A stretch of 62,807 nt of DNA, filler included, from Dimargaris cristalligena (taxonomy: Eukaryota): assembly GCA_003614675.1 (NCBI GenBank). It is 18 parts of 18 records of this genome, joined end to end, with 100 filler letters (N's around TTAATTAATTAA, not from the genome) between each part and the next. Parts side by side here need not be neighbours in the genome. Positions count along the whole stretch, not along the records: positions 3,530 to 6,955 come from ML003948.1; 17 more parts are not named here. One strand, written 5' to 3'. The notes under the pieces are model-generated. The model was given only the letters and a program-made list of their open reading frames with translations. It made no database searches and was not told the DNA's origin. This document shows, in pieces, positions 3,430 through 61,088 of the stretch (positions are counted from its first letter, which is position 1; every line of letters begins with the position of its first letter). The translations under genes and the position numbers were made by a program.

Positions 3430-3529
3430 NNNNNNNNNNNNNNNNNNNNNNNNNNNNNNNNNNNNNNNNNNNNTTAATTAATTAANNNNNNNNNNNNNNN
3501 NNNNNNNNNNNNNNNNNNNNNNNNNNNNN
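3430..3529. other. Artificial contig linker (44 N + TTAATTAATTAA + 44 N), first of 17
   Basis: The same 100-bp spacer, with stops in all six frames, also starts at 6956, 10480, 13992, 17498, 21002, 24505, 28004, 31393, 34889, 38384, 41879, 45372, 48862, 52351, 55840 and 59326. Contig lengths fall from 3429 to 3382 bp, with one outlier of 3289 bp at 28104-31392. Confidence 0.99.
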
Positions 3530-4376
3530 ATTTGCACGCAACCCTCTTGAACATAAGCTACACACTGCCCCTCGACCATCAAAACTGAGGTGAGCAACTC
3601 TTGCTTAAGACAACTGTGTGATATTCAACTCAGCTGTACACGGTATCCAATGTTATATATTATATGGCATATAGTAAAATAGTCAAGATATTGAGTTCTA
3701 GTCTAAAATGTCTGCTGTCGCAAATGTGTGTTTCACCATATGGCCAGCCTGAGCCTACCACATGCCATCACAAACAGTCTAATACTATGTTTGCGGCCCT
3801 TTTCAGTGTCTAAGCTGTACAATCTCGCTTCAATTGCCCTTGTTTTATTATTTAGTCGTCGAGGGGACTTGCGGATAATTGCAAACAATCGGTCAGGGTC
3901 CATGCTTATAGTCGAAAATAATCGGTCACTCAGATCCCTATTAATTTAATTTCCGTACAATAAATGATCTAATTTTAGTGACCCTAGGGAAGCAGTCGGT
4001 TTTAACAGGAATGCGACGTGTTCGCATAGACAGATTCACGACTAGATCACTTCAACCATATTCCCATTTTCACGTGTAATCGTAAGCCAAACCTATCAAG
4101 CATAGCCAGTGAAGGATGGACCAGAATATTGAATAATCACCAACCTGGATGTTTAAAAGAAGAAGATGGCAGCAGGAAGGGGGGGTAGTAAGAAAAAACT
4201 TTTATATAAACCAACTGTGGTTGGGCTACCCCATCACACACAGGGCCTACTAACTAAAGGGTGAATAAATAGGGCAAGAAGGCCCTGTGAAAATAAAGCC
4301 ATAAGGGAAATACCACAGGCGGTTGAGGCTCGGAGCCATTACTCCAGACCGGAAACACGCGAAAAAGATATATGTA

Positions 4377-5876
4377 TTACTGGTATTGAATCAAGTATAG
4401 CTGGTCATCGAGAACGTTGGGATCCAGCCAGAGTGATTCTTCCCCCTTGAGTCCTTGGTCTTGGAGTAATTTCTCGGCCGTCGAGCGGTGGACTCGGATG
4501 GCCAAGTTGGGCCGGTCACTATCATCACGGTACGGGTACACGAACCCACGGGCTGTCCACAGGTCCATCGAATCACTCATCACACGAGAGCCTGTACTAT
4601 ACTGTAGGCACTTTTGCTTCGCATTTTCGAATCCCAGCTGTTCGGCATAGCCACAATCGTATACAAAATCTTCTGCCATACCATCATTTTTACCGGTATA
4701 GGATTCGTCAAACTCCCAACGCAACAGCGTTGTGTACGAATGTATACCCATGTAATAAGCCTCTGTGGGGGTTTTCATACGTGATCCCAGTTCTCCCAAC
4801 TTGCCAAATTGGCCTGTGGTGGCAAAGACCGCACTAATGCTGACCAACATTTGACGCTCAATACTGTATATGGCTCTTTGCTCCCAAGCCTTGGGGAAGT
4901 CATCTCCGAGGATTTCGAGTATCTTTGCTAGACCATCCTGCCTCGCAGTGGCATAAACCGCCAAATCGCTGGAGGCTGAGTCACTCACTCTCTGGCATAA
5001 CTTAATTAGTTCGACCACTGGCAATTCCGATAAAGCAAATAGCACAGGGAAAAGGACTCGCCTTTGGTCGCTGTCCAACCCAGTAAAGTCCAAATAGGCC
5101 CATTCCTTCTTGATGCTGGCTAGGCTTGGACGGTCAATTCTTTCATTCGGGGGTGGTTGTTGATTGTCGGCTTGGGCATGCGATTCATGTTCTTCCTCAT
5201 AAAGGCCACCACGAAGACCCCAAGCGAGGGCCATGAGTGCATCTATTGGCTGTATTGGAAATAGGGCTTGGAAATCATCCAAATTCATTGGTGCATCATT
5301 ATGACTTGATATTACAGCGTCGACTCGCATCTTAATATTTTTAATCTTTGAAAAAAGACAATGGATACGCACGTCAATAAAACACCTTGAGTAAAAATGG
5401 GGATTAGCCACTGGGCATGGTGATATAGTTGCAGCACTAACTCTCTGGATACGTGTATATAATTATATGATAAATCACCAAAAAATCGAGGAGTCCGCTC
5501 TGATAATGGCTAGTTGAGCGACAGAGGGGCCAGATAACTATTTTTGGGATGAAATAAGTAGACTCACCTGAAGAAGTTCCTGAGTGTCTCTGTCTTGATT
5601 TGTCATTACGTGATAGCGACTGTTAACCATGGAGACATAAAAGCGGTCATCTGCGGGCAAATGTCCCAAGACGGTATAGAAAAGCTCCGCGGGAAGAGAG
5701 GCCAACGATCCGGCGGTGTTGGCTTGAGGGCCCTTAATTTGGGAAGAAGTGTCGACTGCATTATGCCGGATTTGGCCATCAATTTCTTTACTCGAATCCA
5801 CGGGCTGGGGGCGACTGGTGACACTGCAGACCAAGACTAGGCTTAGCAGAGTGACAGGAACAAGATAGGACTTCAT
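4377..5876 (-). CDS. Secreted orphan protein with signal peptide + F-box-like motif (family A), 2 exons, ~425 aa
   Basis: Exon 1 (5876-5568) encodes the signal peptide MKSYLVPVTLLSLVLVCSVTS and the F-box-like SLASLPAELFYTVLGHLPADDRFYVSMVNSRY. Phase-0 intron 5567-5346 (GTGAGT...TTGAC...AAG); exon 2 (5345-4377) is in frame. TATAAA near 6083-6078. The paralog at 59677-61088 has the same intron position. Confidence 0.85.
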
Positions 5877-7055
5877 TATTCACACCCGGAAGGTGGTGTG
5901 GGTGGGAGATGAGTAAAAAAAAAAGAGCGTGAATAGTGTTGAATTATTCGTGGCAGTCAAATAAAGCTATGGGCAGTAGACTAACAAAATGTGAAGCTGG
6001 GTACTGACTAGAGTAGAGTAGGGTAGGGTAGGTAGGGAGTGGGTGGGTTGGTATGAAGACGAGAGGGGAGTAGTCTGTTTATAAATTAGGAGCAGGAGAC
6101 TAGAGAGGAGAACCAGGTGCCAAAGAGGAAGGGCCCTTGAGCAGGCCGTCCATGTTGGTAATACAAGACAGAGGCCAGTGGCATTGCACACCACGGCAAA
6201 ACGATTAATGTGTAATATAACCGCAGGCGTATCACTTAACTTATGTATGCCTTATCAAAAGATCACCGAGGCCTGTTCCACAAAAATAGGGCTGGGGAAG
6301 CTGGTTTCGATCTGTCATTAAATTAGATTGCCTACTCCCTTGTGTTTAATCTATATAATATATCAATCCTGACACAGATCTGGCGAAGGTGTGCAACCGC
6401 AGCTCTGTATATCTAAATGGCATGGCCCTGCGTGGTAAATTGTCCCCTTGGCGCCTTCGTTTCCTGACTGACTGTGGAACTCCTCTTCTAGGAATAGCCG
6501 CCACGCAAGGGCGCCAGTCTCTTTACATATTGAGCCCGAGTCACACACAAAGGCGAAAAAGGCAACGAAGGGATAGACGGATAGTGATTAGCCAATCTAC
6601 CGATTGGACGCAGTACTCAGTAGGTGGTGGCCATCGACCCCCCCCCTGGCTATTATGAAACGGCCAAAAGCAATGAATTTCCAACTAAAAGAATCTATGA
6701 CTGGGATTTTGGAGTAACTGTCCGGCAGTGTCTCTATTGTCTCATTTATATTATTTTCCTGGTGGGGAGGAAGGAGGGTTTCCACCCACCCACCACTCAG
6801 CCTTTCTCATCCCCCCCCCCACCACCAGAGATTGTTCATGGCTACCACCCTTCAAAAAGTGTAGAATACAGGAACACCCCAAGTTAAACTGTAACCCTCT
6901 CGCTCTTTCTCTAGACCAATAGTTAGAAATAAGTGGGGGCCATGAGCCAAGCACANNNNNNNNNNNNNNNNNNNNNNNNNNNNNNNNNNNNNNNNNNNNT
7001 TAATTAATTAANNNNNNNNNNNNNNNNNNNNNNNNNNNNNNNNNNNNNNNNNNNN

Positions 7056-14091: not shown

Positions 14092-15204
14092 GGACAGGGA
14101 GTATATTGGGCCAAAGGAAGGTTGGGTGTCAGGGAGAAGTGGGATATGGTGGTAATAAGCACAGTGGGCAGGGAGTTGTTCTGATTTTTCTTTACTAAAA
14201 ATGTCATTGAAGTTGGCGTACTCGGGTGGGATAGTAATTTTGGCTGTGGATGAGATATTGAGGGTATTAAGGTGACCAGCGTAGATAGCTTTGCCAGAAT
14301 CAATATAATCAGCTAGTTCATATTGGTCTACAAATTCTATAGTACCAGGCTTATTATTGAGGCAGTTGTTTAAACAGTATGAGGACCAAAATACTAAGGA
14401 ATCATATTCCCAATTAACTTTAGGATTGTGTTTTTGAAGCCAGGAAAGGCCAATTACAATATCATAGTGACCCAAATTGGTAACAAATAGGGAGAGGGTT
14501 TCATGGTGATCAAGAATAGTTAAGGAGAGGGGGCTAGTACGGTGAGTAACAGCACCTGAGGAGATTGAGCGGCCATCAATAACTGTAAGGGTAATTGGGG
14601 AGGCAAGTTCTTCAAGGGGGATTTGATGGGTAGAGATAAATTGTGAATCAATAAATGAATCACTGGCACCAGAGTCCAGCATGGCATCAGCATAAATAGG
14701 TGTATTACCCAGGGTTATACAAACAGAGATAACAATATGCTGTTTTGTTCCTACAGCAGATAAAATTAGGTCAGGTAAATTAGAACTAGAATCCATAACT
14801 GGGGAAGTACTGGGGTTTGTAAGGGGGGGAGAAGGTAGGATCGAACAAGAGTAAGGGCTAGGGACCAGGGCAGGGTAACAGGCGGGGCTAGGGACTAGGA
14901 CTGGGTATGGGTTAAAACTTTGAACTTGGATAGGGCTAAGGTCGGGCTTTTGGACTATAGTGGGATAGGTGGCAGACTATTGGGAGGGGATGGGGGATTG
15001 TTGACGTGAGGACAATGGGGATAACTTGTAAATTTCTTCAGTTTCTTGTGATGTTGGATATTTATTGGAAGGGCTACTTTTATCAAGAATTGAAAAGAAA
15101 CTGGGGCGGCCAAAAGGAATGGCATTAGTATTACCCAGTGATGGAGTATCCTGACGGCTACCCAGACAGCTGTCCTCTATTGGCGCTGGGTATTGATGTT
15201 TTTT
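14092..15204 (-). pseudogene. pol: pol N-terminus (linker + aspartic protease), reached by -1 frameshift; one in-frame stop
   Basis: Protease motif AMLDSGASDSFID and YDIVIGLSWL. The -1 frame is open from the slippery site A-AAA-AAC (15204-15198) to the protease, except for TAG at 14979-14977. Confidence 0.85.
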
Positions 15205-16142
15205 GCTTCATCCTCAGCAGGGATAATTATAGAGATATTAGCAGGACGTTGGGTGGGGCGAGCAGGACAGTTAGCCACAATATGGCCTGAATTTCCACAA
15301 TACAGGCAGAGGTTTAAATTTCTGCATCTAAGTTTTTCTTCAGAGGAAAGGGGACCACGGGGGGCTATGGAGAGAGCATCAACCTCCATGGCTTGGGGAG
15401 GGGGCGGTCTGGGAGGAGCGGGGGCTTGAGGTAGGTAGTTTGTACGGACAGTTGAATTTCGTTTTTCCAAAAGACGGTCATAAAGACGTTCATCAATCTT
15501 GGTAGCTAGACAAATCATATCAGATAGAGAGGATTGACGTGTGGTTCTTGAGAGTTCATCCTTGACATCATTCTTAAGTCCTTTATAGAACTGGAAGGGA
15601 AGTGCATCATCATTCCAGTTGATAAGACTAGTAAGGCGTCGGAATTCAGAGGCATAGGCAGATACAGAATGGGTTTGACGTAGTTTATCAAGGAGCCGTT
15701 CTGCACTAGCTACTTGGTCGGGCTCACCAAATATAATTGATAACTCACAGACAAAAGACTCATAGTTTAAGAGAACTTCGGGGGTTTCAACCATTGATAA
15801 GTAAGGCTGGATCCAGGAAAAAGCAGAGCCACGAAGGAAGGAGGCAGCATATGAGGTTTTGGATGTTTCTGAGACAAATCTGCTTGGTTGAATACGAAAA
15901 ATGAGATTGACCTGAGCTATAAATGTCAGTAGTTTTGAGCGATTACCATCAAAGAATTCGGGGTTGGCAATACTAGGTTCACAGGGGTAAGCTGGGAGGA
16001 TGGCCTGGAGGTTGGGTTGAGAGAGGGTACGGACCTTTTCCTCAAGGGCTTGGACAACTGTTGCCATCTTGCAGAGTTCTTGGTATTCCCTCTTGGTGAG
16101 AGTAACAATTTCTTCAGTGGGAGGAGGGTCAGGAGGGGACAT
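15177..16142 (-). CDS. gag: Gag polyprotein (retrotransposon capsid + CCHC zinc knuckle)
   Basis: PEFFDGNRSKL..., LRQTHSVSAYASEF, FYKGLKNDVKDEL, and CLYCGNSGHIVANC. The first ATG after the PBS is at 16142. Confidence 0.93.
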   Translation of the reverse strand: MSPPDPPPTEEIVTLTKREYQELCKMATVVQALEEKVRTLSQPNLQAILPAYPCEPSIANPEFFDGNRSKLLTFIAQVNLIFRIQPSRFVSETSKTSYAASFLRGSAFSWIQPYLSMVETPEVLLNYESFVCELSIIFGEPDQVASAERLLDKLRQTHSVSAYASEFRRLTSLINWNDDALPFQFYKGLKNDVKDELSRTTRQSSLSDMICLATKIDERLYDRLLEKRNSTVRTNYLPQAPAPPRPPPPQAMEVDALSIAPRGPLSSEEKLRCRNLNLCLYCGNSGHIVANCPARPTQRPANISIIIPAEDEAKNINTQRQ

Positions 16143-16177
16143 ATTGGTAGGTGGCCTATAGGAATCAGCTTGCAAAC

Positions 16178-16545
16178 TGTTATGATGAGCTAAAGATGAG
16201 GCCAGGTACCATAAGACAGGCGGGACTTTGAAGGATGGAATTAGGATTTATTAAACTAGATATCAGAAAAGGAAAACAAAGAGGAGTTGCAAGCTGAAGA
16301 GCAAGCTAAGGGAAAATGGTTGGGGTTATATCCCAACCCAAGGGGCAGGGGAAGAATGATAATAACTAATAGATACAAATCAGTAACTAGATAATATGAG
16401 GAATAAACACTGGGAAATAAAACATAGTAGGGTGATGGGTATATATCTTGGTAATGTTGGATATTAATTTTACCCATTTGTTAATATGGGTTTTTTTACT
16501 TATATGGTGGGTTATTTATATAGTTCAAATTTACCGGTCATGACA
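16178..16545 (-). repeat. 5' LTR of family B element (368 bp)
   Basis: TG..CA termini with a 7/8 inverted match, TATAA at 16330-16326, directly upstream of gag; second copy near 8025-8230. Confidence 0.88.
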
Positions 16546-37565: not shown

Positions 37566-38954
37566 TCCCTCTCACCAACTAGTCCTCCATCATGCATCGT
37601 ATTTATTTAACAGGATTAGTCACCCCATTTGCTATTGACCATTGTCAATGGTGCCATTTCTTTGGACCATCCATCGGACATACTTAAATATCCATAAAGC
37701 CACCTCCTTGTGATGTTAATGTAGCCCAATAAATGCCGTATATACACACATATGCTAAGCAAAAGGCTTCTTAGTCCCTATTTACGATTGCTTGAAATGT
37801 GATTGTCAATTTGTATACAGTTATTAGTTCATTCTGTAAGAATTGTAGGGCTTTTCTCCAGAAGAATTCCACTTAGGCCGATGATAAATCAGATGGATTG
37901 TTTATATATACGATGCTGGCCTATTTCTGAAGAATAGCATTGTCTACCTAACCCAATAACCATAACACACGTGTTTTTGTTAGCCATGGGCCGCTATGGG
38001 GGTATTGTGATTGGGATATAAGACACTGTTGCGGATACGCGGGCTTGCAGGGCCACGGGTATTGCCAAATAGGTTTTAGGCTGCGTTAGTGAACTCTTGA
38101 CTATATTGTAGGTAGAGTTTATATCTATGCATAGCTATAATCCACCACTAATTTCTAAAATGTGTGCAATATACCCACACTAATGTGTAGTACCGTTTGA
38201 TATGGCATGATTGATTGCTAGCAGTTGATATCACATCCAGTCCAAAGTTTATCGAACAATCCTACGGTTAGCTTGAGCATATCCTGTCGGCATCCGGTGT
38301 GACAATTTTCATATTTATTATTACTGTGATTATTAACTTACCATTATCTTTTCATCGATGTATTCCTAGAACACTCAAACTCGNNNNNNNNNNNNNNNNN
38401 NNNNNNNNNNNNNNNNNNNNNNNNNNNTTAATTAATTAANNNNNNNNNNNNNNNNNNNNNNNNNNNNNNNNNNNNNNNNNNNNCGCTTCATACCTTATAT
38501 ATAAATATAATAATCAAATAGTAATACTTTATACCTGTAGTAATCAAGGGGACACTCCACCTTGCCACAACGGCCGCAATGGTGAAGAGCTTCACAGGGC
38601 GGGTATCCATCCCCCCACTGGATATCAGATGGGATTCAGTACCCAGCAACCTCCCACAGAAAAAACTGCACCTTCCCAAGAAGAGGATGCCATAGAGCAT
38701 ACCATTACATAACTCCCTAGTGAACCAGAGGAGCTTCTTACCAGCCACTTTCCAGCCAAAAAGGCCTCTGATATCAGCACTATGGGCTTATCCAGAACTA
38801 ATTTATCACTGACCAGCCCATTATATGAAGTAAGTATTGGTCTCTGCAATTTCCCTATAAGTGCATTTTAGCCTGCCAAACTCACTGATGGTCCAATACC
38901 TAATTAGCCTTAGCAGAAGTGGATATTACAGTACTGCTCCACAACCCTATTTCT

Positions 38955-40217
38955 ATGCAATTCGGCAGACTCCTGACTACTCATGCCCCTGTTCTTTCCC
39001 TCTATATCTGTAGCTTTTGAGGGTTTTTGACCAAATTACCCATTATCATGTTCCCTGTGGATAGCAATTATGACCAAAAGGTTGCCTGCCTTAGATTCAC
39101 TTTAAATAAAACTCTACTTCATCTGACTACTCATGCCATGTAAGCACACAGTCTAAACTGCCAATGGATACAATTTTATACTCATAGGTTGCTCCGCCAC
39201 TGATGACAGAAAATACTAGAAGTGCAGCAATCACTACAGTATACCAAACTCCAGGAAATGGTCATGAACAACACCAAGGTAATGAAAGAAAATGTAAATA
39301 GTGTAGCCAAATCCTTGATTTCAATTGAGTTTGATTTGGCTATGACACTGATATTTTATGAATCCCTATATAGTAAATCCCAGTTTCCCCCAGTTATATG
39401 GGAGGAACAAAAGTGACCATATACTTGATGGATACCTTTCTTAAACAAGATTCAAAGAGATTGGGTGTCTGTCAATTACAACACATTGAGTTTGGAACAG
39501 CAACTGGCCACATTCCCGCTTCTCTTCGTCTCCTTCCACGAAAAGGCACTCCCAAATGCAAAACACTGGAAAAATTCTATGAAAATGGTGCATCCAATTA
39601 ACATAGATACTACCGATTTAGGACCTGACCATCAGTTGATTAAAGAGCCGGCTATCCAACAAGGTATGGGTTGGCCCAAAAGGGAATACACTACTCCAAG
39701 GGCCTTCTACTCCCAATTGGTACCCCTCCTGTTTGTCTTGTTGGCCCGCCGTGGCCACGTAGCTAAGCCGCGGGACCTTATCCAACAATGGTCGGGCCGG
39801 GGTATCGACAAGGATACTGTTCTACTTATCCAGTTTTTCGTCATTATGGTCCTAGAATTCGGCACTGTGGACTTGCGCGACTGGGCAATTGAAAGAATAC
39901 AATCCCAATTGGAGGCCTGCTTAATGAATTCCCAAAAATGCGCAGAAATGCTCGGGTATACTCATGTCGCGCGTGAACTCGAGCACGTATGGGACAGCTT
40001 GGCCTACCGGCCCACCTGGTCAGAATGTTTTAGGGGACTTGGGATGGATCGTACCATAGTGGTAAACAAACCCAAGAATGGCAGTACAGCGCGGGTGACT
40101 ATGCTGGTATGCAAATCGACCTTTGTGAACCTGGACCAGGACGGCAAAAACGCCTTATTACCAACGAAATACACTAAGGAACAATGGACAGATCCACGGA
40201 CGAAAAATACCGACTGA
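38955..40217 (+). pseudogene. Decayed distant member of secreted family A
   Basis: Degenerate signal MQFGRLLTTHAPVLSLYICS, a weak F-box-like FLTKLP...N, and a GTAAGC donor near 39140. WVSVNYNTLSLEQQLATFPLL resembles family A WAYLDFTGLDSDQRRVLFPVL. TGA stops lie in the 5' half; the 3' ORF 39465-40217 is open. Confidence 0.55.
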
Positions 40218-55971: not shown

Positions 55972-57580
55972 GAATACAACACCACCGGGAGACGTCCCAG
56001 TCCCAAACCGATTTTATTCCAGTCATTGCGGAAGAACTGGCTAACGAGGCCTGGGTTCTGTGCTTCGACGAATTTCAGGTAGGTTATGGAGAAATCGGCT
56101 GTAATGGACTAGGTTCCAACCTACCGAGACTATTGGTCACTATATACACCACATTTAATAATATTGCCATTACTTGATTCATTGTACCCTTTGGAATGTA
56201 TTGGACTTTACCATTTCGTCGGTCCACTAGGTGACTGATATCGCCGATGCCATGATCTTGCGCCGTCTGATCACTGGTCTAGTTGACCGCGGAGTCGTCA
56301 TCATTACTACGTCCAACCGGCATCCCGATGGTAAGTTAGAGGTCTACCATTATTCATTATATGGGAGAAGTTCATTCAGGCTGTATAATGAAAAATCCAC
56401 TGGATGCGGCCAATATTACTGGTTAAAAGCTATTCTCACATATATTCGCCCATACACGTATATTGTAAAACCTTATACAGCTGGTTTGAATTTTACCCAT
56501 ATCCTTATGGCAATTGTACTAAAGTTAGCAGACTATTTTTAGTAAATATCCAAGATACATCTACATCTAGGCTTAACCATTCGCACCGCGTTATATCTAC
56601 TAATATATCATCTACAAAATGTCTATTCCCCCCCCCAGATCTCTATAAGAATGGCCTCCAACGCCAGAGCTTTCTACCGTGTATCGAGTTGATCAAATCC
56701 CATTGCCGCGTCGTATCCCTCAACTCAGGTACCGACTACCGCAAACTCGAGCGGGAGCGTGGGGAGCTCTACCTCAGCCCCTTGAGTGAAGCTACCCAAG
56801 GTCGCCTGGAGGCCCTATGGATCCTAGTTCGGGCGGGCCAACCCAACCAAGTTCAGACCCTCCATTTTCTGGGTCGGGATCTAGTCATTCCCCAAGTAGC
56901 CAATGGTGCGGCCCAGTTCTCTTTCTACGACTTATGCGCCCAGGCCCACAGTGCCGTGGACTATTTGCAAATCGCGCGGCGCTTCCACACCGTTTTCCTC
57001 ACGGATGTTCCCCGCATGAATTTCACCCATAAAAACGAGGTGCGGCGACTGATTACCCTGATCGATACCCTCTACGAAAACCATGTGGTCTTGGTCATGT
57101 CGGCCGAAGCCCCGGCTGCTCAACTGTTTCACACGGCCGATGAAGTGGAAAACACCAATACAGCAGCTACGGGGTCGGCTGTTAATGCTGAGCAGCGTCA
57201 ATTAATGGATGACCTTGGACTCAGTTCAACCCAGGTACGTATTTTTTTAGTTTATTATATTTTAAATAATTCCTTTCTGATGTACCTTGTTCTGTATGGA
57301 TTCCCTGTTAATACGACTCCTTTCTGATTGGGGTCATAATATTCAATGTATCTCAACGAAGTAACTAACTATTATATTGCTATCCCCTTCTTCAAACCGG
57401 TGTTTATATGTTACCTGTCAACCGCAGTTGGACAGCCCCATTTTCTCGGGTGAAGAAGAAATTTTCGCATTCCAGCGTGCCGTCAGCCGTCTGGTTGAAA
57501 TGCAGAGTAAACTTTGGGTCTATGGAGCTCGTCAGCGGTTACCCGCTGCCTTTGTCGATCACCAACTCAATTTCTCCTAG
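55972..57580 (+). CDS. AFG1: AFG1/ZapE (LACE1) family ATPase, 5' truncated, 4 exons visible
   Basis: Exons ~55972-56078, 56231-56330, 56639-57234 and 57428-57580, with phase-compatible GT-AG introns. Motifs [18 protein letters not shown] (Walker B), [44 protein letters not shown]. Confidence 0.95.
56359..56502 (+). mobile_element. ~145-bp MITE inside an AFG1 intron
   Basis: Imperfect ~30-bp terminal inverted repeats (ATATGGGAGAAGTTCATTCAGGCTGTATAA / TTATACAGCTGGTTTGAATTTTACCCATAT); five copies in the window. Confidence 0.8.
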
Positions 57581-57899: not shown

Positions 57900-59325
57900 T
57901 GCTGGTGGATTCAGGTGGACACATTGAGTAATGGTATTTGCCTCCAACTCAGAAATGGCATATTAAAGGTCAACCCTCAATTATTAAATAATTAATTAAA
58001 TCTCATGCCAGCATTTCCCATTTTATTTATAAATGAGATGCCCTTACATGGCTGTGCCATGGCTTAGTTCATCCTGTCATTTTGGAGGCTTGGTGATTCA
58101 TTGTCTAAGAACCAATTAAATTAAGTTATGTGATGCCCCTCTTTGCAGTACTGAGCATCACAAGGTCCACCTGTAAGGAATCTGCAGTGGATTTGAGGGC
58201 CTTGCTCCTCCCCTTACCTGATCTTATTCTCTATAATGGAGCCATATTTTGGATCCATTACACTGTTGGGACATGCTATATTCCATTATTCCATTAGTCA
58301 CTGTCATTCCCAAAGTGGGCTTCTGGACAAAAATAAGAACTGAGTTCTATCTTGAGTTTTTGTATAGAGCTATCACTGGTGGTATATTTTACATTAGTAA
58401 TACACTAATTCTGCACCTAGTGTTGTGCCAGCAGTTTGAGGGGCTCCACTTTCTTGTCACTTGGTGTGTCAGTGGGTAGAAGGGTCTCCATTTTGCTATC
58501 ATTAGATGGGTTATCATATTCAGTAGTGTAGTGCATAGTGCTGGGCTTTGTCAGGTTTGAGGGGCTGGAGGCATAAGTTCCTTTAGGGAAGTTACCAATG
58601 GGTGTGTCTGCCATTGTATCATATATTATTATTTTGCATATTATCATGTCATCAGATAGGTATTAAAAAGATATAAAGAATTCAGTACTGGAGATACCAA
58701 AATCAAACTGAAAAATAGAAAATAAAAGAAATAGAAAGAAAGTAATAAAATCAAATAAAACTAGGTATTGAGCTATTTGATCCTTCTTAATCTAGATACC
58801 TTAGTGTCTATCCCTATTAGGCTTTATAACACCATATTAACCTTCCCATGGTTACCCCCAATAATATGGAATCACCCTCTATTATATAACTATTCCCCTT
58901 CCAGACTCCTTAGTTTGTACTAATCACTCCAGTGCTGATCCAAAGACTCTTCTGGCTACCAGCAGAGTCTTCCAAGTCCTCATAGCCATCTGGATGGCCT
59001 ATTTATTTTACCATAGTCTTAGTAGTATCCTTCTCTGGGGACCTCCCCCCAGAGTTGCCCCTACATATATAACTGGGCCCCATTAGGACTAGTTCAATTC
59101 CTTAGCTTATTCTAACCCCCTAGTTTATCTTAATAAACCATATATATACTCACCCCCCTTGTATTGACTAGTAAGTATGCTCACTACATGTCCCTTACTT
59201 ATACCTATATCTAGTATAAAGAACTGAACTCAAATCCTTGAAAACTGAACTTTATTTAAAAAGATAGATAATAAAAGGGAAAGGTGATGATAGACTTGCT
59301 GTTCCAAGAGGTGGCAGCAAGGGGT
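57900..59325. mobile_element. Degenerate repeat/transposon remnant region
   Basis: Essentially CpG-free, with a stop-riddled minus-strand frame (58647 downward); 59015-59325 is shared with 10580-10945. Confidence 0.55.
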
Positions 59326-59676
59326 NNNNNNNNNNNNNNNNNNNNNNNNNNNNNNNNNNNNNNNNNNNNTTAATTAATTAANNNNNNNNNNNNNNNNNNN
59401 NNNNNNNNNNNNNNNNNNNNNNNNNCCCCCCTTTATCTTTATTATAAGGCATATGTAAGGGATAAATTATATCAGTGTCCCCAATTCTTATTCAATGGTG
59501 GGCCGTGGTTAAACACGGCCTCGACTTATACCGGCTGGGCTAGATGGGGTTTCCTCCCCAGCCATGTCTCTCCAGCGGCTGTTACCCATCTATATATAAA
59601 CTGCCCATTCCTCCCCTTGTATTCATTCCACCACACCTCACCTTCCTACTCCTCCATTGAATTTCAGCAGTTAAGA

Positions 59677-61088
59677 ATGAAGCAGTACTGTGTTTCTGTT
59701 ACTTTTCTGGGACTCGCCCTGGCCCACAGTGCCACTGGCCGCCCCCAGTATGGGAGTTATGGTTATTCCACTACCCAAGCTACTTTTCTTTACCCTCCCG
59801 CTATCCCTCCCCGGTCTTCGGGTTATAGATATTCCGTTGACCAAACTACCTACTTCCAAAAAACTGCTGAAAGCCGCCAACCCAGCCAGGGGGATTATGC
59901 CAGCCAATCAAATAATGCTGGCACAAAAACTCTTCCCAGTGAGAAAGACAAACAAGTCAGTTTAATCAGTTTCACCCCAAATAATACTCCACTCACCCTG
60001 TTATTTGGCTGGCCATCACCTATGCTGGTTCCTTTAGTTTGCTAATACGCGTTTGAACTATCCGCGCGTAGTTAGAACACTGGTGTATTCGCTCCATATC
60101 CATAGTCATCCACTAGCTCCCATTTTGTAATCACGGTGTTTCGTTGACGTATATCTATTCCCGCATTTCCTACTATTGAAAGGATTTGGCAATGGTGAAG
60201 GGTGTAATATCTAGTGATCTAGCGCCCCATATATATAGCCTGCAAGTCCTCTTTCCGATGCAGCCGATGGATGCACTCATGGCCTCCGCCTGGCATTTAA
60301 GTCCAAGTTATAATAACATTGCGCCAGAATGGGAGTTGCTGAACTATACCCAGATGGACGACAATCAGAAGCGTACCCTCTTCCCATTGCTGTACTACTT
60401 ACCGAAGCTACCCGCGGCCGAGATTGACCAACTATTTCAGAGAGTGACGAGCGAGTCTTTAAAGAAAATATCAGGTGAAAAAATTGAGCAGTACCAAGCT
60501 GAGAAGTACCCAGACGAAAAGGGGATCAAAGTCTTTGGTGGTTTTCTCGAACATGCATAGGATCTCGACTCCAGAAATAATGTCGTGGAACAAATGTTGG
60601 TCAGTGTCAGTGCGGTCCTTGCCACTACCGATCAATGCCAAACACTGAAAGATGTAATTATACGGTATAATAAACACAGAGGGTCGTATCGAAAGACATT
60701 AAGTGCATACGCGACTTTATTGCTTTGGGAATATGACAGATCCTGGACCGGTCGAGACGATGGTTTTGCCCATTGGTTTGACTACGATGGTCGTTATGCC
60801 GGTGCACTGGGATTCAGCACTGCCCAGCGAAAGTGCGTAGAGTTTACAAAGGGCAAAGAGAGTGTAACGAGCGACAATGACCTCTATAAATTGACAGCCC
60901 GTGGAACTATGTACCCGCACCGCGACAACATCGGCAAGCCCACCTTGGCCATCCGAGTCCACCGTTCGACTGCCGAGAAATTACTCGTAGCCAAGGGACA
61001 AAATCCGGTCAAGCCTTATTTCTTACGTCGCGATATTCTCATGAAGCAGCTCAATGTGGTGCAATGTCGGGAGGATATCCTGCAGTAG
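59677..61088 (+). pseudogene. Secreted family A paralog without F-box; single in-frame TAG
   Basis: Exon 1 (59677-59955) starts MKQYCVSVTFLGLALAHSATG-RPQ; intron 59956-60182; exon 2 is 60183-61088. TAG at 60558-60560 aligns with Trp in the paralog (PKAW vs EHA*). Shared LFPxQPxDALMA, QMLVSxSAVxATT, LAIRVHRSTAEKLL. Confidence 0.85.

Follow-up and report, generated by a model that had tools for sequence, protein, structure and literature searches.

The locus and its predicted two-exon gene

The window considered here is a stretch of 62,807 nucleotides of DNA from the mycoparasite Dimargaris cristalligena (assembly GCA_003614675.1), in which, as the map of N runs shows, 18 contigs of ~3.4 kb each are spaced by linkers of the form N44-TTAATTAATTAA-N44. 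One of these contigs (positions 3530..6955, 3426 bp) carries, as its only gene, a minus-strand gene that begins with a sequence resembling a signal peptide (SP), continues with an F-box-like motif and appears to end in a large domain without known relatives in other organisms. A first-pass annotation of the window had proposed this gene as a candidate secreted effector hijacking the Skp1-Cul1-F-box (SCF) ubiquitin ligases of a host.

The start codon is the ATG at 5876. Two codons 5' of it lies an in-frame TGA (5880..5882, minus strand), which bounds the stop-to-stop open reading frame (ORF) 5541-5879, so that an N-terminal extension is impossible unless another exon exists upstream. Exon 1 (5568..5876, minus strand) is a single open frame of 103 codons that ends in phase 0. 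It encodes the SP-like N-terminus MKSYLVPVTLLSLVLVCSVTS (codons 1-21, 5814..5876), a variable polar linker of 35 residues (codons 22-56, 5709..5813) and an F-box-like region running from about codon 57 to the end of the exon at codon 103 (5568). The F-box-like string quoted in the first-pass annotation, LASLPAELFYTVLGHLPADDRFYVSMVNSRY, corresponds to residues 57-87 of the exon 1 product, and the Pfam F-box-like match covers codons 58-95 (5592..5705, minus strand; profile positions 1-38 of 47). The sequence is thus as that annotation described it, with SP-like N-terminus, linker and motif in one unbroken ORF (5876-5568), and the linkage of the SP to the F-box is therefore independent of any splice.

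The proposed intron (5346..5567, minus strand) is a GT..AG interval of 222 nt, GTGAGT...TTGTCTTTTTTCAAAG, with its donor GT at 5567-5566 and its acceptor AG at 5347-5346 behind the pyrimidine tract TTGTCTTTTTTCAA. Exon 2 (4377..5345, minus strand) contributes 322 codons (5345-4380) and a stop codon (4379-4377), joins exon 1 in phase 0 and would give a spliced product of 425 aa. The earlier proposal of a splice to an exon of ~320 aa therefore holds at the sequence level. With the donor at 5567 fixed, three acceptors keep a long open frame (5445/5444, 5346/5345 and 5331/5330). The first would add 33 residues found in no paralog; the second has the best pyrimidine tract of the three and yields a product collinear with the full-length paralog P0007. 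At the equivalent place in a second member of the family in the window (paralog 2, described below) there is a GT..AG interval of 227 nt. Downstream of the join, the helical segment FQALFPIQPIDALMALAW (5220..5273, minus strand) is conserved in the alignment after the F-box of the full-length paralogs and corresponds to helices 135-158 of a structural model of P0007.

The main argument for this exon join is that full-length paralogs (P0004, P0007, P0030, P0032, P0033 and P0024) hold the SP, the linker, the F-box, the helix LFP.QP.DA.M...W and the C-terminal domain in one chain. Our reading is that a single gene of Dimargaris cristalligena, or of a near-identical strain, occupies the locus with two exons, the join itself being a prediction from sequence. 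The product would consist of a cleavable SP (1-21), a disordered linker, an F-box (~57-103), a helical connector and a helical domain of ~250 residues; the disorder of the linker is read from the equivalent place of the P0007 model.

A gene family with a predicted signal peptide, a probable F-box and an orphan domain

When 1.84 billion representative proteins were searched exhaustively with an HMMER profile, 27 family representatives emerged at E<=1e-3, 22 of them at E<=1e-10, which reduce to ~25 genes after alternative models of single genes are merged; the count is drawn from protein databases. All 27 clusters are named Dimargaris cristalligena only, so the large family expected by the first-pass annotation does exist and carries the label of one species. 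Word-index homolog searches returned only 2 proteins each. Many members of the family are split or mis-modelled by public annotations. Contamination from a host was rejected as a source of these sequences, given the species name on 27/27 clusters and the absence of any Mucorales protein of this family among the 1.84 billion representatives.

The N-terminus was judged by rules, that is, by its agreement with an n/h/c pattern and with the -3/-1 rule. The n-region of the window protein has a charge of +2, the uncharged h/c stretch spans 19 residues with a hydrophobic core of ~16 residues broken by P and T, and V-T-S at positions -3 to -1 is followed by RPQP and a net negative flank. The SP pattern with small -3/-1 residues is present in each of the 18 family models that bear an N-terminus (17 genes): their n-regions are charged +2 or +3, their uncharged h/c stretches span 10-25 residues, and a conserved [RHL]P follows the site; the other ~8 genes are represented by N-terminally truncated models, outside this check. 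The signal peptide originally proposed thus passes the rule-based checks wherever they can be applied. The charge of the flank on the C-terminal side of the site, which ranges from -4 to +2 over 15 residues, is below that of the n-region in 17 of the 18 models and equal to it in the remaining one (P0027). Such a balance speaks for either a cleaved signal or an orientation with the N-terminus inside, and counts against an anchor of the type that keeps the F-box on the cytosolic side. No later 19-residue stretch reaches a hydropathy of 1.6 in the window protein or in 13 of the 18 paralog models. The SP is also the most conserved part of the protein, with a mean pairwise identity of 46% as compared with 28% for the C-terminal domain, 23% for the F-box and 16% for the linker; conservation highest in the SP is typical of expanded effector families. 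Residues 1-21 are accordingly predicted, from these sequence features, to be a cleavable signal peptide.

The four residues that follow the putative cleavage site (codons 22-25, 5802-5813) are nearly as conserved as the SP itself, at 41% mean identity. Most members have RPQP, with the variants RPKP, HPHP, RPYP and LPG, and RPQP reads as two X-Pro dipeptides. Such a pair directly after an SP could be processed by a dipeptidyl peptidase, or could serve as a sorting or uptake signal.

The evidence for the F-box comes from profiles, from recurrence of the motif and from a predicted structure. When the whole Pfam library was scanned, the window protein matched F-box-like (PF12937) at E=6e-5 (23.2 bits) and F-box (PF00646) at E=3.3e-3 (17.7 bits). 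Of the 40 family sequences that were scanned, nine, belonging to seven genes, matched F-box models at the homologous place: one gene, the paralog P0007/P0031, exceeds the PF00646 cut-off of 20.5 bits with scores of 24.9-25.0, and the six further genes give sub-threshold matches. The automatic UniProt name 'F-box domain-containing protein' is borne by a member of 10 of the 27 clusters, covering P0046 (a model of the window ORF) and four genes that Pfam missed. Eleven paralogs carry the motif at the corresponding position, and in the 12-gene alignment the P and E of the LPxE core are invariant and the hydrophobic spacing is the usual one. The motif first noticed is therefore beyond chance, as both the Pfam E-values and this recurrence indicate. 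The profile support that the first-pass annotation called for is solid at the family level, where P0007/P0031 exceeds the cut-off and UniProt assigns the name, and is marginal for the window protein alone. A tryptophan in the third helix belongs to the canonical F-box consensus; in this family it is replaced by Y, L or another residue. Among the ESM Atlas neighbours of residues 50-103, the ten best that bear a name share the F-box family or clan of the best match (score 0.93), an agreement of a kind seen also for a third of shuffled proteins.

An AlphaFold2 model of P0007, built on a 24-row family alignment, reached a mean predicted local distance difference test (pLDDT) of 76.9 and a predicted TM-score (pTM) of 0.73, and contains three short helices at 75-84, 87-94 and 98-104 (pLDDT 72-80). 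Compared with 48,161 representative PDB chains, it gave, among the 50 rows listed, eight F-box chains from SCF or Skp1 complexes, all of them aligning to residues 64-124 (Z 4.2-5.7, root-mean-square deviation (rmsd) 1.9-3.2 Å, 40-52 residues). The best single F-box match is that of AnkB in complex with human Skp1 (5k35_A; Z 5.7, rmsd 2.7 Å, 50 residues, 24% identity); the F-box chains of FBH1, FBXL2, FBXL5, FBXW7 and FBXL17 follow with Z 4.5-4.7, and that of Skp2 aligns over 40/41 residues at 1.9 Å. Structural support for the F-box of the earlier annotation is thus provided by eight Skp1-bound chains matched to a predicted model. Foldseek, run with the whole P0007 model against the PDB, gave no match at E<=0.001, the best (E 0.26) being a generic helical protein. 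Taken together, the profile and model evidence makes it very probable that the F-box is genuine at the level of the family, and nearly as probable that it is genuine in the window gene.

A model of P0004, built on a 4-row alignment, was discarded for its mean pLDDT of 34.4, and alignments containing fragment rows, which were distorted, were kept out of the searches. A reading of LxxLPxEI as part of a leucine-rich repeat (LRR), prompted by the LRR protein that heads the PDB matches of the family F-box profile, was rejected, the motif occurring once per protein and within a helical region of the model.

The C-terminal domain (4380..5120, minus strand) is marked by the motifs EWAYLDFTGL, RRVLFP, LVSISAVFATTGQFGKL, YDCGYAEQLGF..A..KC and PNLAIRVHRST. 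The P0007 model, at pLDDT 82-97 in this part, shows it as largely helical, a single beta-hairpin lying under the LAIRV.R motif. It matches no Pfam family, has no usable feature match in the ESM Atlas, where structural rows stay at TM<=0.37, and has no relatives under the names of other organisms among the 1.84 billion representative proteins. Apart from F-boxes, the rows of the PDB search hold helical repeats, whether designed or natural, at Z<=5.8 and rmsd 4-10 Å. The domain thus deserves the name of orphan given to it at the outset, with no Pfam, Atlas or convincing PDB match. The model, which was searched as a whole, points to no identified fold, and we do not take this as proof of a new one.

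A candidate host-delivered effector and its alternatives

Dimargaritales are described, in an excerpt of a published account, as parasites of Mucoromycota and Ascomycota that act via an appressorium and a haustorium (PMC9866270). The organism that produces these proteins is thus in intimate contact with the cytoplasm of its host, as are the producers of host-delivered F-box effectors. With this in mind, one may propose that the SP takes the protein through the secretory pathway for release where parasite and host meet, that the protein then enters the host hypha, that its F-box docks there on the host Skp1-Cul1 core, and that its C-terminal domain recruits host proteins for ubiquitination. An F-box is useful only beside Skp1, and a cleaved SP removes the protein from the cytosol of its producer; export into the host is therefore the simplest reconciliation of the two. 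Skp1 is very conserved among fungi. Since host and parasite are both fungi, a duplicated endogenous F-box would be pre-adapted to the ligase of the host, and the parasite's own F-box gene, once duplicated and provided with an SP, may have needed little further adaptation. A secreted, host-delivered F-box effector is in our view the best explanation of the locus, held tentatively and at somewhat less than even chances, with secretion, uptake, Skp1 binding and recruitment all being proposed steps. A more ambitious version is somewhat less probable: that ~25 haustorially delivered receptors each pass a different host protein to the host Skp1-Cul1 through a fast-diverging helical domain, and that the SP with RPQP forms a dedicated signal for export and uptake.

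A number of observations weigh against delivery of an F-box effector. The SP was assessed by simple rules, and in 4 of the 18 models (P0030, P0032, P0022 and P0027) a later 19-residue stretch inside the C-terminal domain reaches a hydropathy of 1.66-1.94. We know of no translocation route into host cells established for Dimargaritales. At least three members (window paralog 2, P0022/P0034 and P0027) have an SP and no F-box, so the function shared by the family may not need one. The window protein itself falls below the curated Pfam cut-offs (23.2 against 24.3 bits and 17.7 against 20.5 bits), and P0004, P0005, P0018/P0032, P0021/P0033, P0024/P0035, P0010, P0040 and P0043 have no Pfam F-box match despite carrying the motif. 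A phmmer search of PDB sequences with the window exon 1 protein found no F-box; a family F-box profile made from 12 segments reaches solved F-boxes weakly (E 0.1-0.8), and its top match is a spurious LRR protein that shares LxxLPxEI. The structural match was obtained on a predicted model of the paralog P0007, not of the window protein, and AlphaFold may impose the F-box fold on anything that resembles an F-box in sequence, which makes the fold evidence dependent on the sequence signal. Finally, the locus is divided between two genes in both public annotations. In these the part with SP and F-box is a protein of 112 or 123 aa (P0028, P0046), P0046 using the same donor with the nearer acceptor 5538/5537 and running into an early stop, and the second part is a protein of 285 aa that begins at an internal Met (P0003, P0045).

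The same features may be accommodated if the hydrophobic segment is not cleaved and instead anchors endogenous F-box proteins in the endoplasmic reticulum or another organelle, leaving the F-box in the cytosol of the parasite as part of an expanded set of its own SCF receptors. F-box proteins work with Skp1 in the nucleus or the cytosol, eukaryotic lineages have commonly expanded their endogenous F-box genes each in its own way, the F-box evidence fits such an arrangement equally well, and in some paralogs the uncharged N-terminal stretch extends to 21-25 residues. Nevertheless, n-regions of +2 or +3 beside C-terminal flanks of -4 to +2 would place the F-box outside the cytosol, small -3/-1 residues before [RHL]P in all 18 models are not expected of a plain anchor, and the core of the window protein, ~16 residues with P and T breaking it, would make a short membrane span, so that we consider an anchor fairly improbable. 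We are about as sceptical of the view that secretion leads the proteins no further than the haustorial interface or the cell wall, where they would act without entering the host cytosol, the F-box-like unit being an inherited or reused binding module that never meets Skp1. The SP evidence suits this view just as well, as do the sub-threshold F-box scores of the window protein and the replaced tryptophan of the third helix, and the three members that keep an SP and a C-terminal domain without an F-box would make these two the conserved core. Selection on an F-box-type interface is nonetheless indicated by the LPxE core and hydrophobic pattern, which are kept in 12 genes that are only ~23% identical in this region. 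Moreover, the mature window protein has 3 cysteines, no N-glycosylation sequon and an acidic isoelectric point, and ten paralog models have 0-4 cysteines and 0-5 sequons. So few cysteines would be unusual in an extracellular fungal protein, and a protein that is acidic and poor in cysteine is unlike the disulfide-rich proteins of the apoplast.

The locus might also be decaying or mis-assembled, that is, consist of two separate or dead genes, of which the piece with SP and F-box would be a pseudogene or an orphan product of 112-123 aa. The public models split the locus in just this way, the contigs are tiny, and an in-frame stop in paralog 2 together with an SP-like remnant at 58236-58343 indicates that decay does occur in the family. 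Against this, both exons are intact and join in phase through a consensus donor and a strong acceptor, and the joined protein is collinear with the full-length paralogs P0007 and P0004. The 285-aa part differs by 1 residue between its two public copies, and the internal Met at which its model begins falls within a helix conserved among the paralogs. Decay or mis-assembly is for these reasons very unlikely. The interpretation as a host-delivered effector can on balance be called partly supported: its anatomy, its SP features, its homology to F-boxes and the restriction of the family to one species name have been computed, and its functional core is proposed on that basis.

Relation to known F-box effectors

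Hijacking of the host SCF by F-box proteins of pathogens is established for bacteria, for some viruses and for one insect. To our knowledge no fungal F-box effector has been characterised, and we know of no effectors described for biotrophy between fungi. In the insect, the Hessian fly (Mayetiola destructor), the SSGP-71 proteins reportedly form a large family with a signal peptide and a conserved 5' end. As summarised in part of one publication, SSGP-71 proteins combine an F-box with LRRs and bind Skp proteins of the host, and some members have no F-box (PMC4617103). The Dimargaris proteins resemble them in being an expanded family of a eukaryotic parasite with an N-terminal F-box, a C-terminal domain and some members devoid of the F-box. 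They differ in that their C-terminal domain is helical and of no known family instead of an LRR, in that the host would be a fungus instead of a plant, and in that Skp binding, shown for SSGP-71, is proposed here. No sequence relationship to SSGP-71 beyond the F-box was found.

Among bacteria, Agrobacterium VirF is said to be an F-box effector that works on the host SCF. Ralstonia RipG7 is presented, in the same part of that publication, as a pathogen F-box protein tied to the host Skp1-Cul1 ligase, with a second domain that selects the targets (PMC4617103), and Legionella AnkB is described as an F-box effector proposed or shown to plug into that ligase. The Dimargaris protein shares with RipG/GALA, AnkB and VirF the combination of an F-box with a second domain, for which a role in choosing targets is proposed here. 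However, the bacterial proteins are injected by type III or type IV systems, whereas the Dimargaris protein would use the eukaryotic secretory pathway; they carry LRR or ankyrin domains where it carries an orphan domain; and their F-boxes are thought to have been acquired from eukaryotes, while that of Dimargaris is presumably a duplicate from its own F-box genes.

The nearest fungal case in the publications consulted is NLS_30765 of Rhizophagus clarus, which an excerpt of its description places in the predicted secretome, with a PF12937 domain and a proposed role in disturbing host SCF signalling (PMC4746824). Like the Dimargaris protein, it is a fungal, predicted-secreted protein with an F-box-like domain. 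The two are set apart by description: NLS_30765 is a single uncharacterised candidate of a plant symbiont, with 542 aa and a predicted nuclear localisation signal, whereas the Dimargaris proteins form a multigene family. The idea of a secreted fungal F-box is thus already in print, as an uncharacterised prediction in R. clarus. No publication was found that joins Dimargaris and F-box, and none, judged by titles and the openings of abstracts, on a secreted F-box of a mycoparasite; a term search of the main text of the single-cell genome paper returned no F-box, secreted, secretome or effector (PMC6784888).

In comparison with cytosolic F-box proteins such as Skp2, Fbxw7, FBXL2/5/17 and FBH1, the Dimargaris protein has the same LPxE-type motif, a three-helix F-box in the model and the same order of N-terminal F-box, helical connector and further domain. 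Cytosolic F-box proteins, in contrast, have no SP and end in LRR, WD40 or other known modules, and the sequence-profile similarity to the canonical members is weak (E 0.15-0.8).

What these data add to the known cases is the prediction, from sequence and model, of a fungal family in which an SP-borne F-box is followed by an orphan domain that would select targets. Rather than marking one odd gene, the combination of SP and F-box recurs as the usual layout across a family of ~25 genes that is restricted to one species, itself a biotroph on other fungi. If the more ambitious version of the proposal is true, a fungus would here be seen for the first time to reprogram the ubiquitin system of another, and fungi would have their first F-box effector family. 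Should the proteins enter the host, they would offer a molecular handle on biotrophy between fungi, a new substrate-receptor fold, and a test case for how housekeeping modules become effectors when the core machineries of host and parasite are near-identical. Should the N-terminal segment instead anchor the proteins in a membrane, the family would represent SCF receptors of an unusual, membrane-tethered kind. In practical terms, both public annotations fragment the SP and F-box gene and several of its paralogs.

Other features of the window

The first-pass annotation had noted two relatives of the gene within 63 kb. Both are real (E=2e-56 and E=2.1e-7); the linkage that this implied is void, since the joined contigs are unlinked and the order and distance of features on separate contigs (divided, for example, by the linkers at 3430-3529, 6956-7055, 38384-38483 and 59326-59425) are meaningless. 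Exon 1 of the closer relative, paralog 2 (59677..59955, plus strand), encodes the SP MKQYCVSVTFLGLALAHSATG followed by RPQ and a Y/S/P-rich linker, with no F-box motif. Its C-terminal domain (60183..61088, plus strand) is 37% identical to exon 2, the E-value of 2e-56 being that of tblastn, and is interrupted by an in-frame TAG at 60558-60560; the public model P0044 splices 59955 to 60561, thereby omitting the first 125 codons of the domain including the stop. Paralog 2 may therefore be a pseudogene or a shortened member. The other relative (39429..40214, plus strand), which lies on a different contig, is a third and divergent version of the C-terminal domain. It is recognised by the hidden Markov model (HMM) of the family over profile positions 135-352 with the E-value of 2.1e-7, and by tblastn only at E=0.021; the 945 bp of contig upstream of it showed no exon for an SP or an F-box.

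An ORF at 58236-58343 (plus strand) starts with MEPYFGSITLLGHAIF and runs for 35 codons before its stop. Its resemblance to the family SP is marginal (E=0.034 with the HMM), and it may represent the decayed 5' end of another member. Outside the window, the linker between SP and F-box in P0029 and P0019 is an extreme acidic repeat rich in D, F and N (DDDDFDNFDDDFDNF...). These two are seemingly one gene, of which each public model keeps different exons.

No Skp1 family match was present among the 30 window ORFs scanned. The ORF at 15180-16247 (minus strand) encodes gag and capsid domains of a Ty3-type retrotransposon (Pfam E about 1e-9), and repeat elements are thus present on some of the small contigs. 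That at 56392-57324 (plus strand) encodes an AFG1-like ATPase domain (Pfam E=7e-49) and is an ordinary housekeeping gene.

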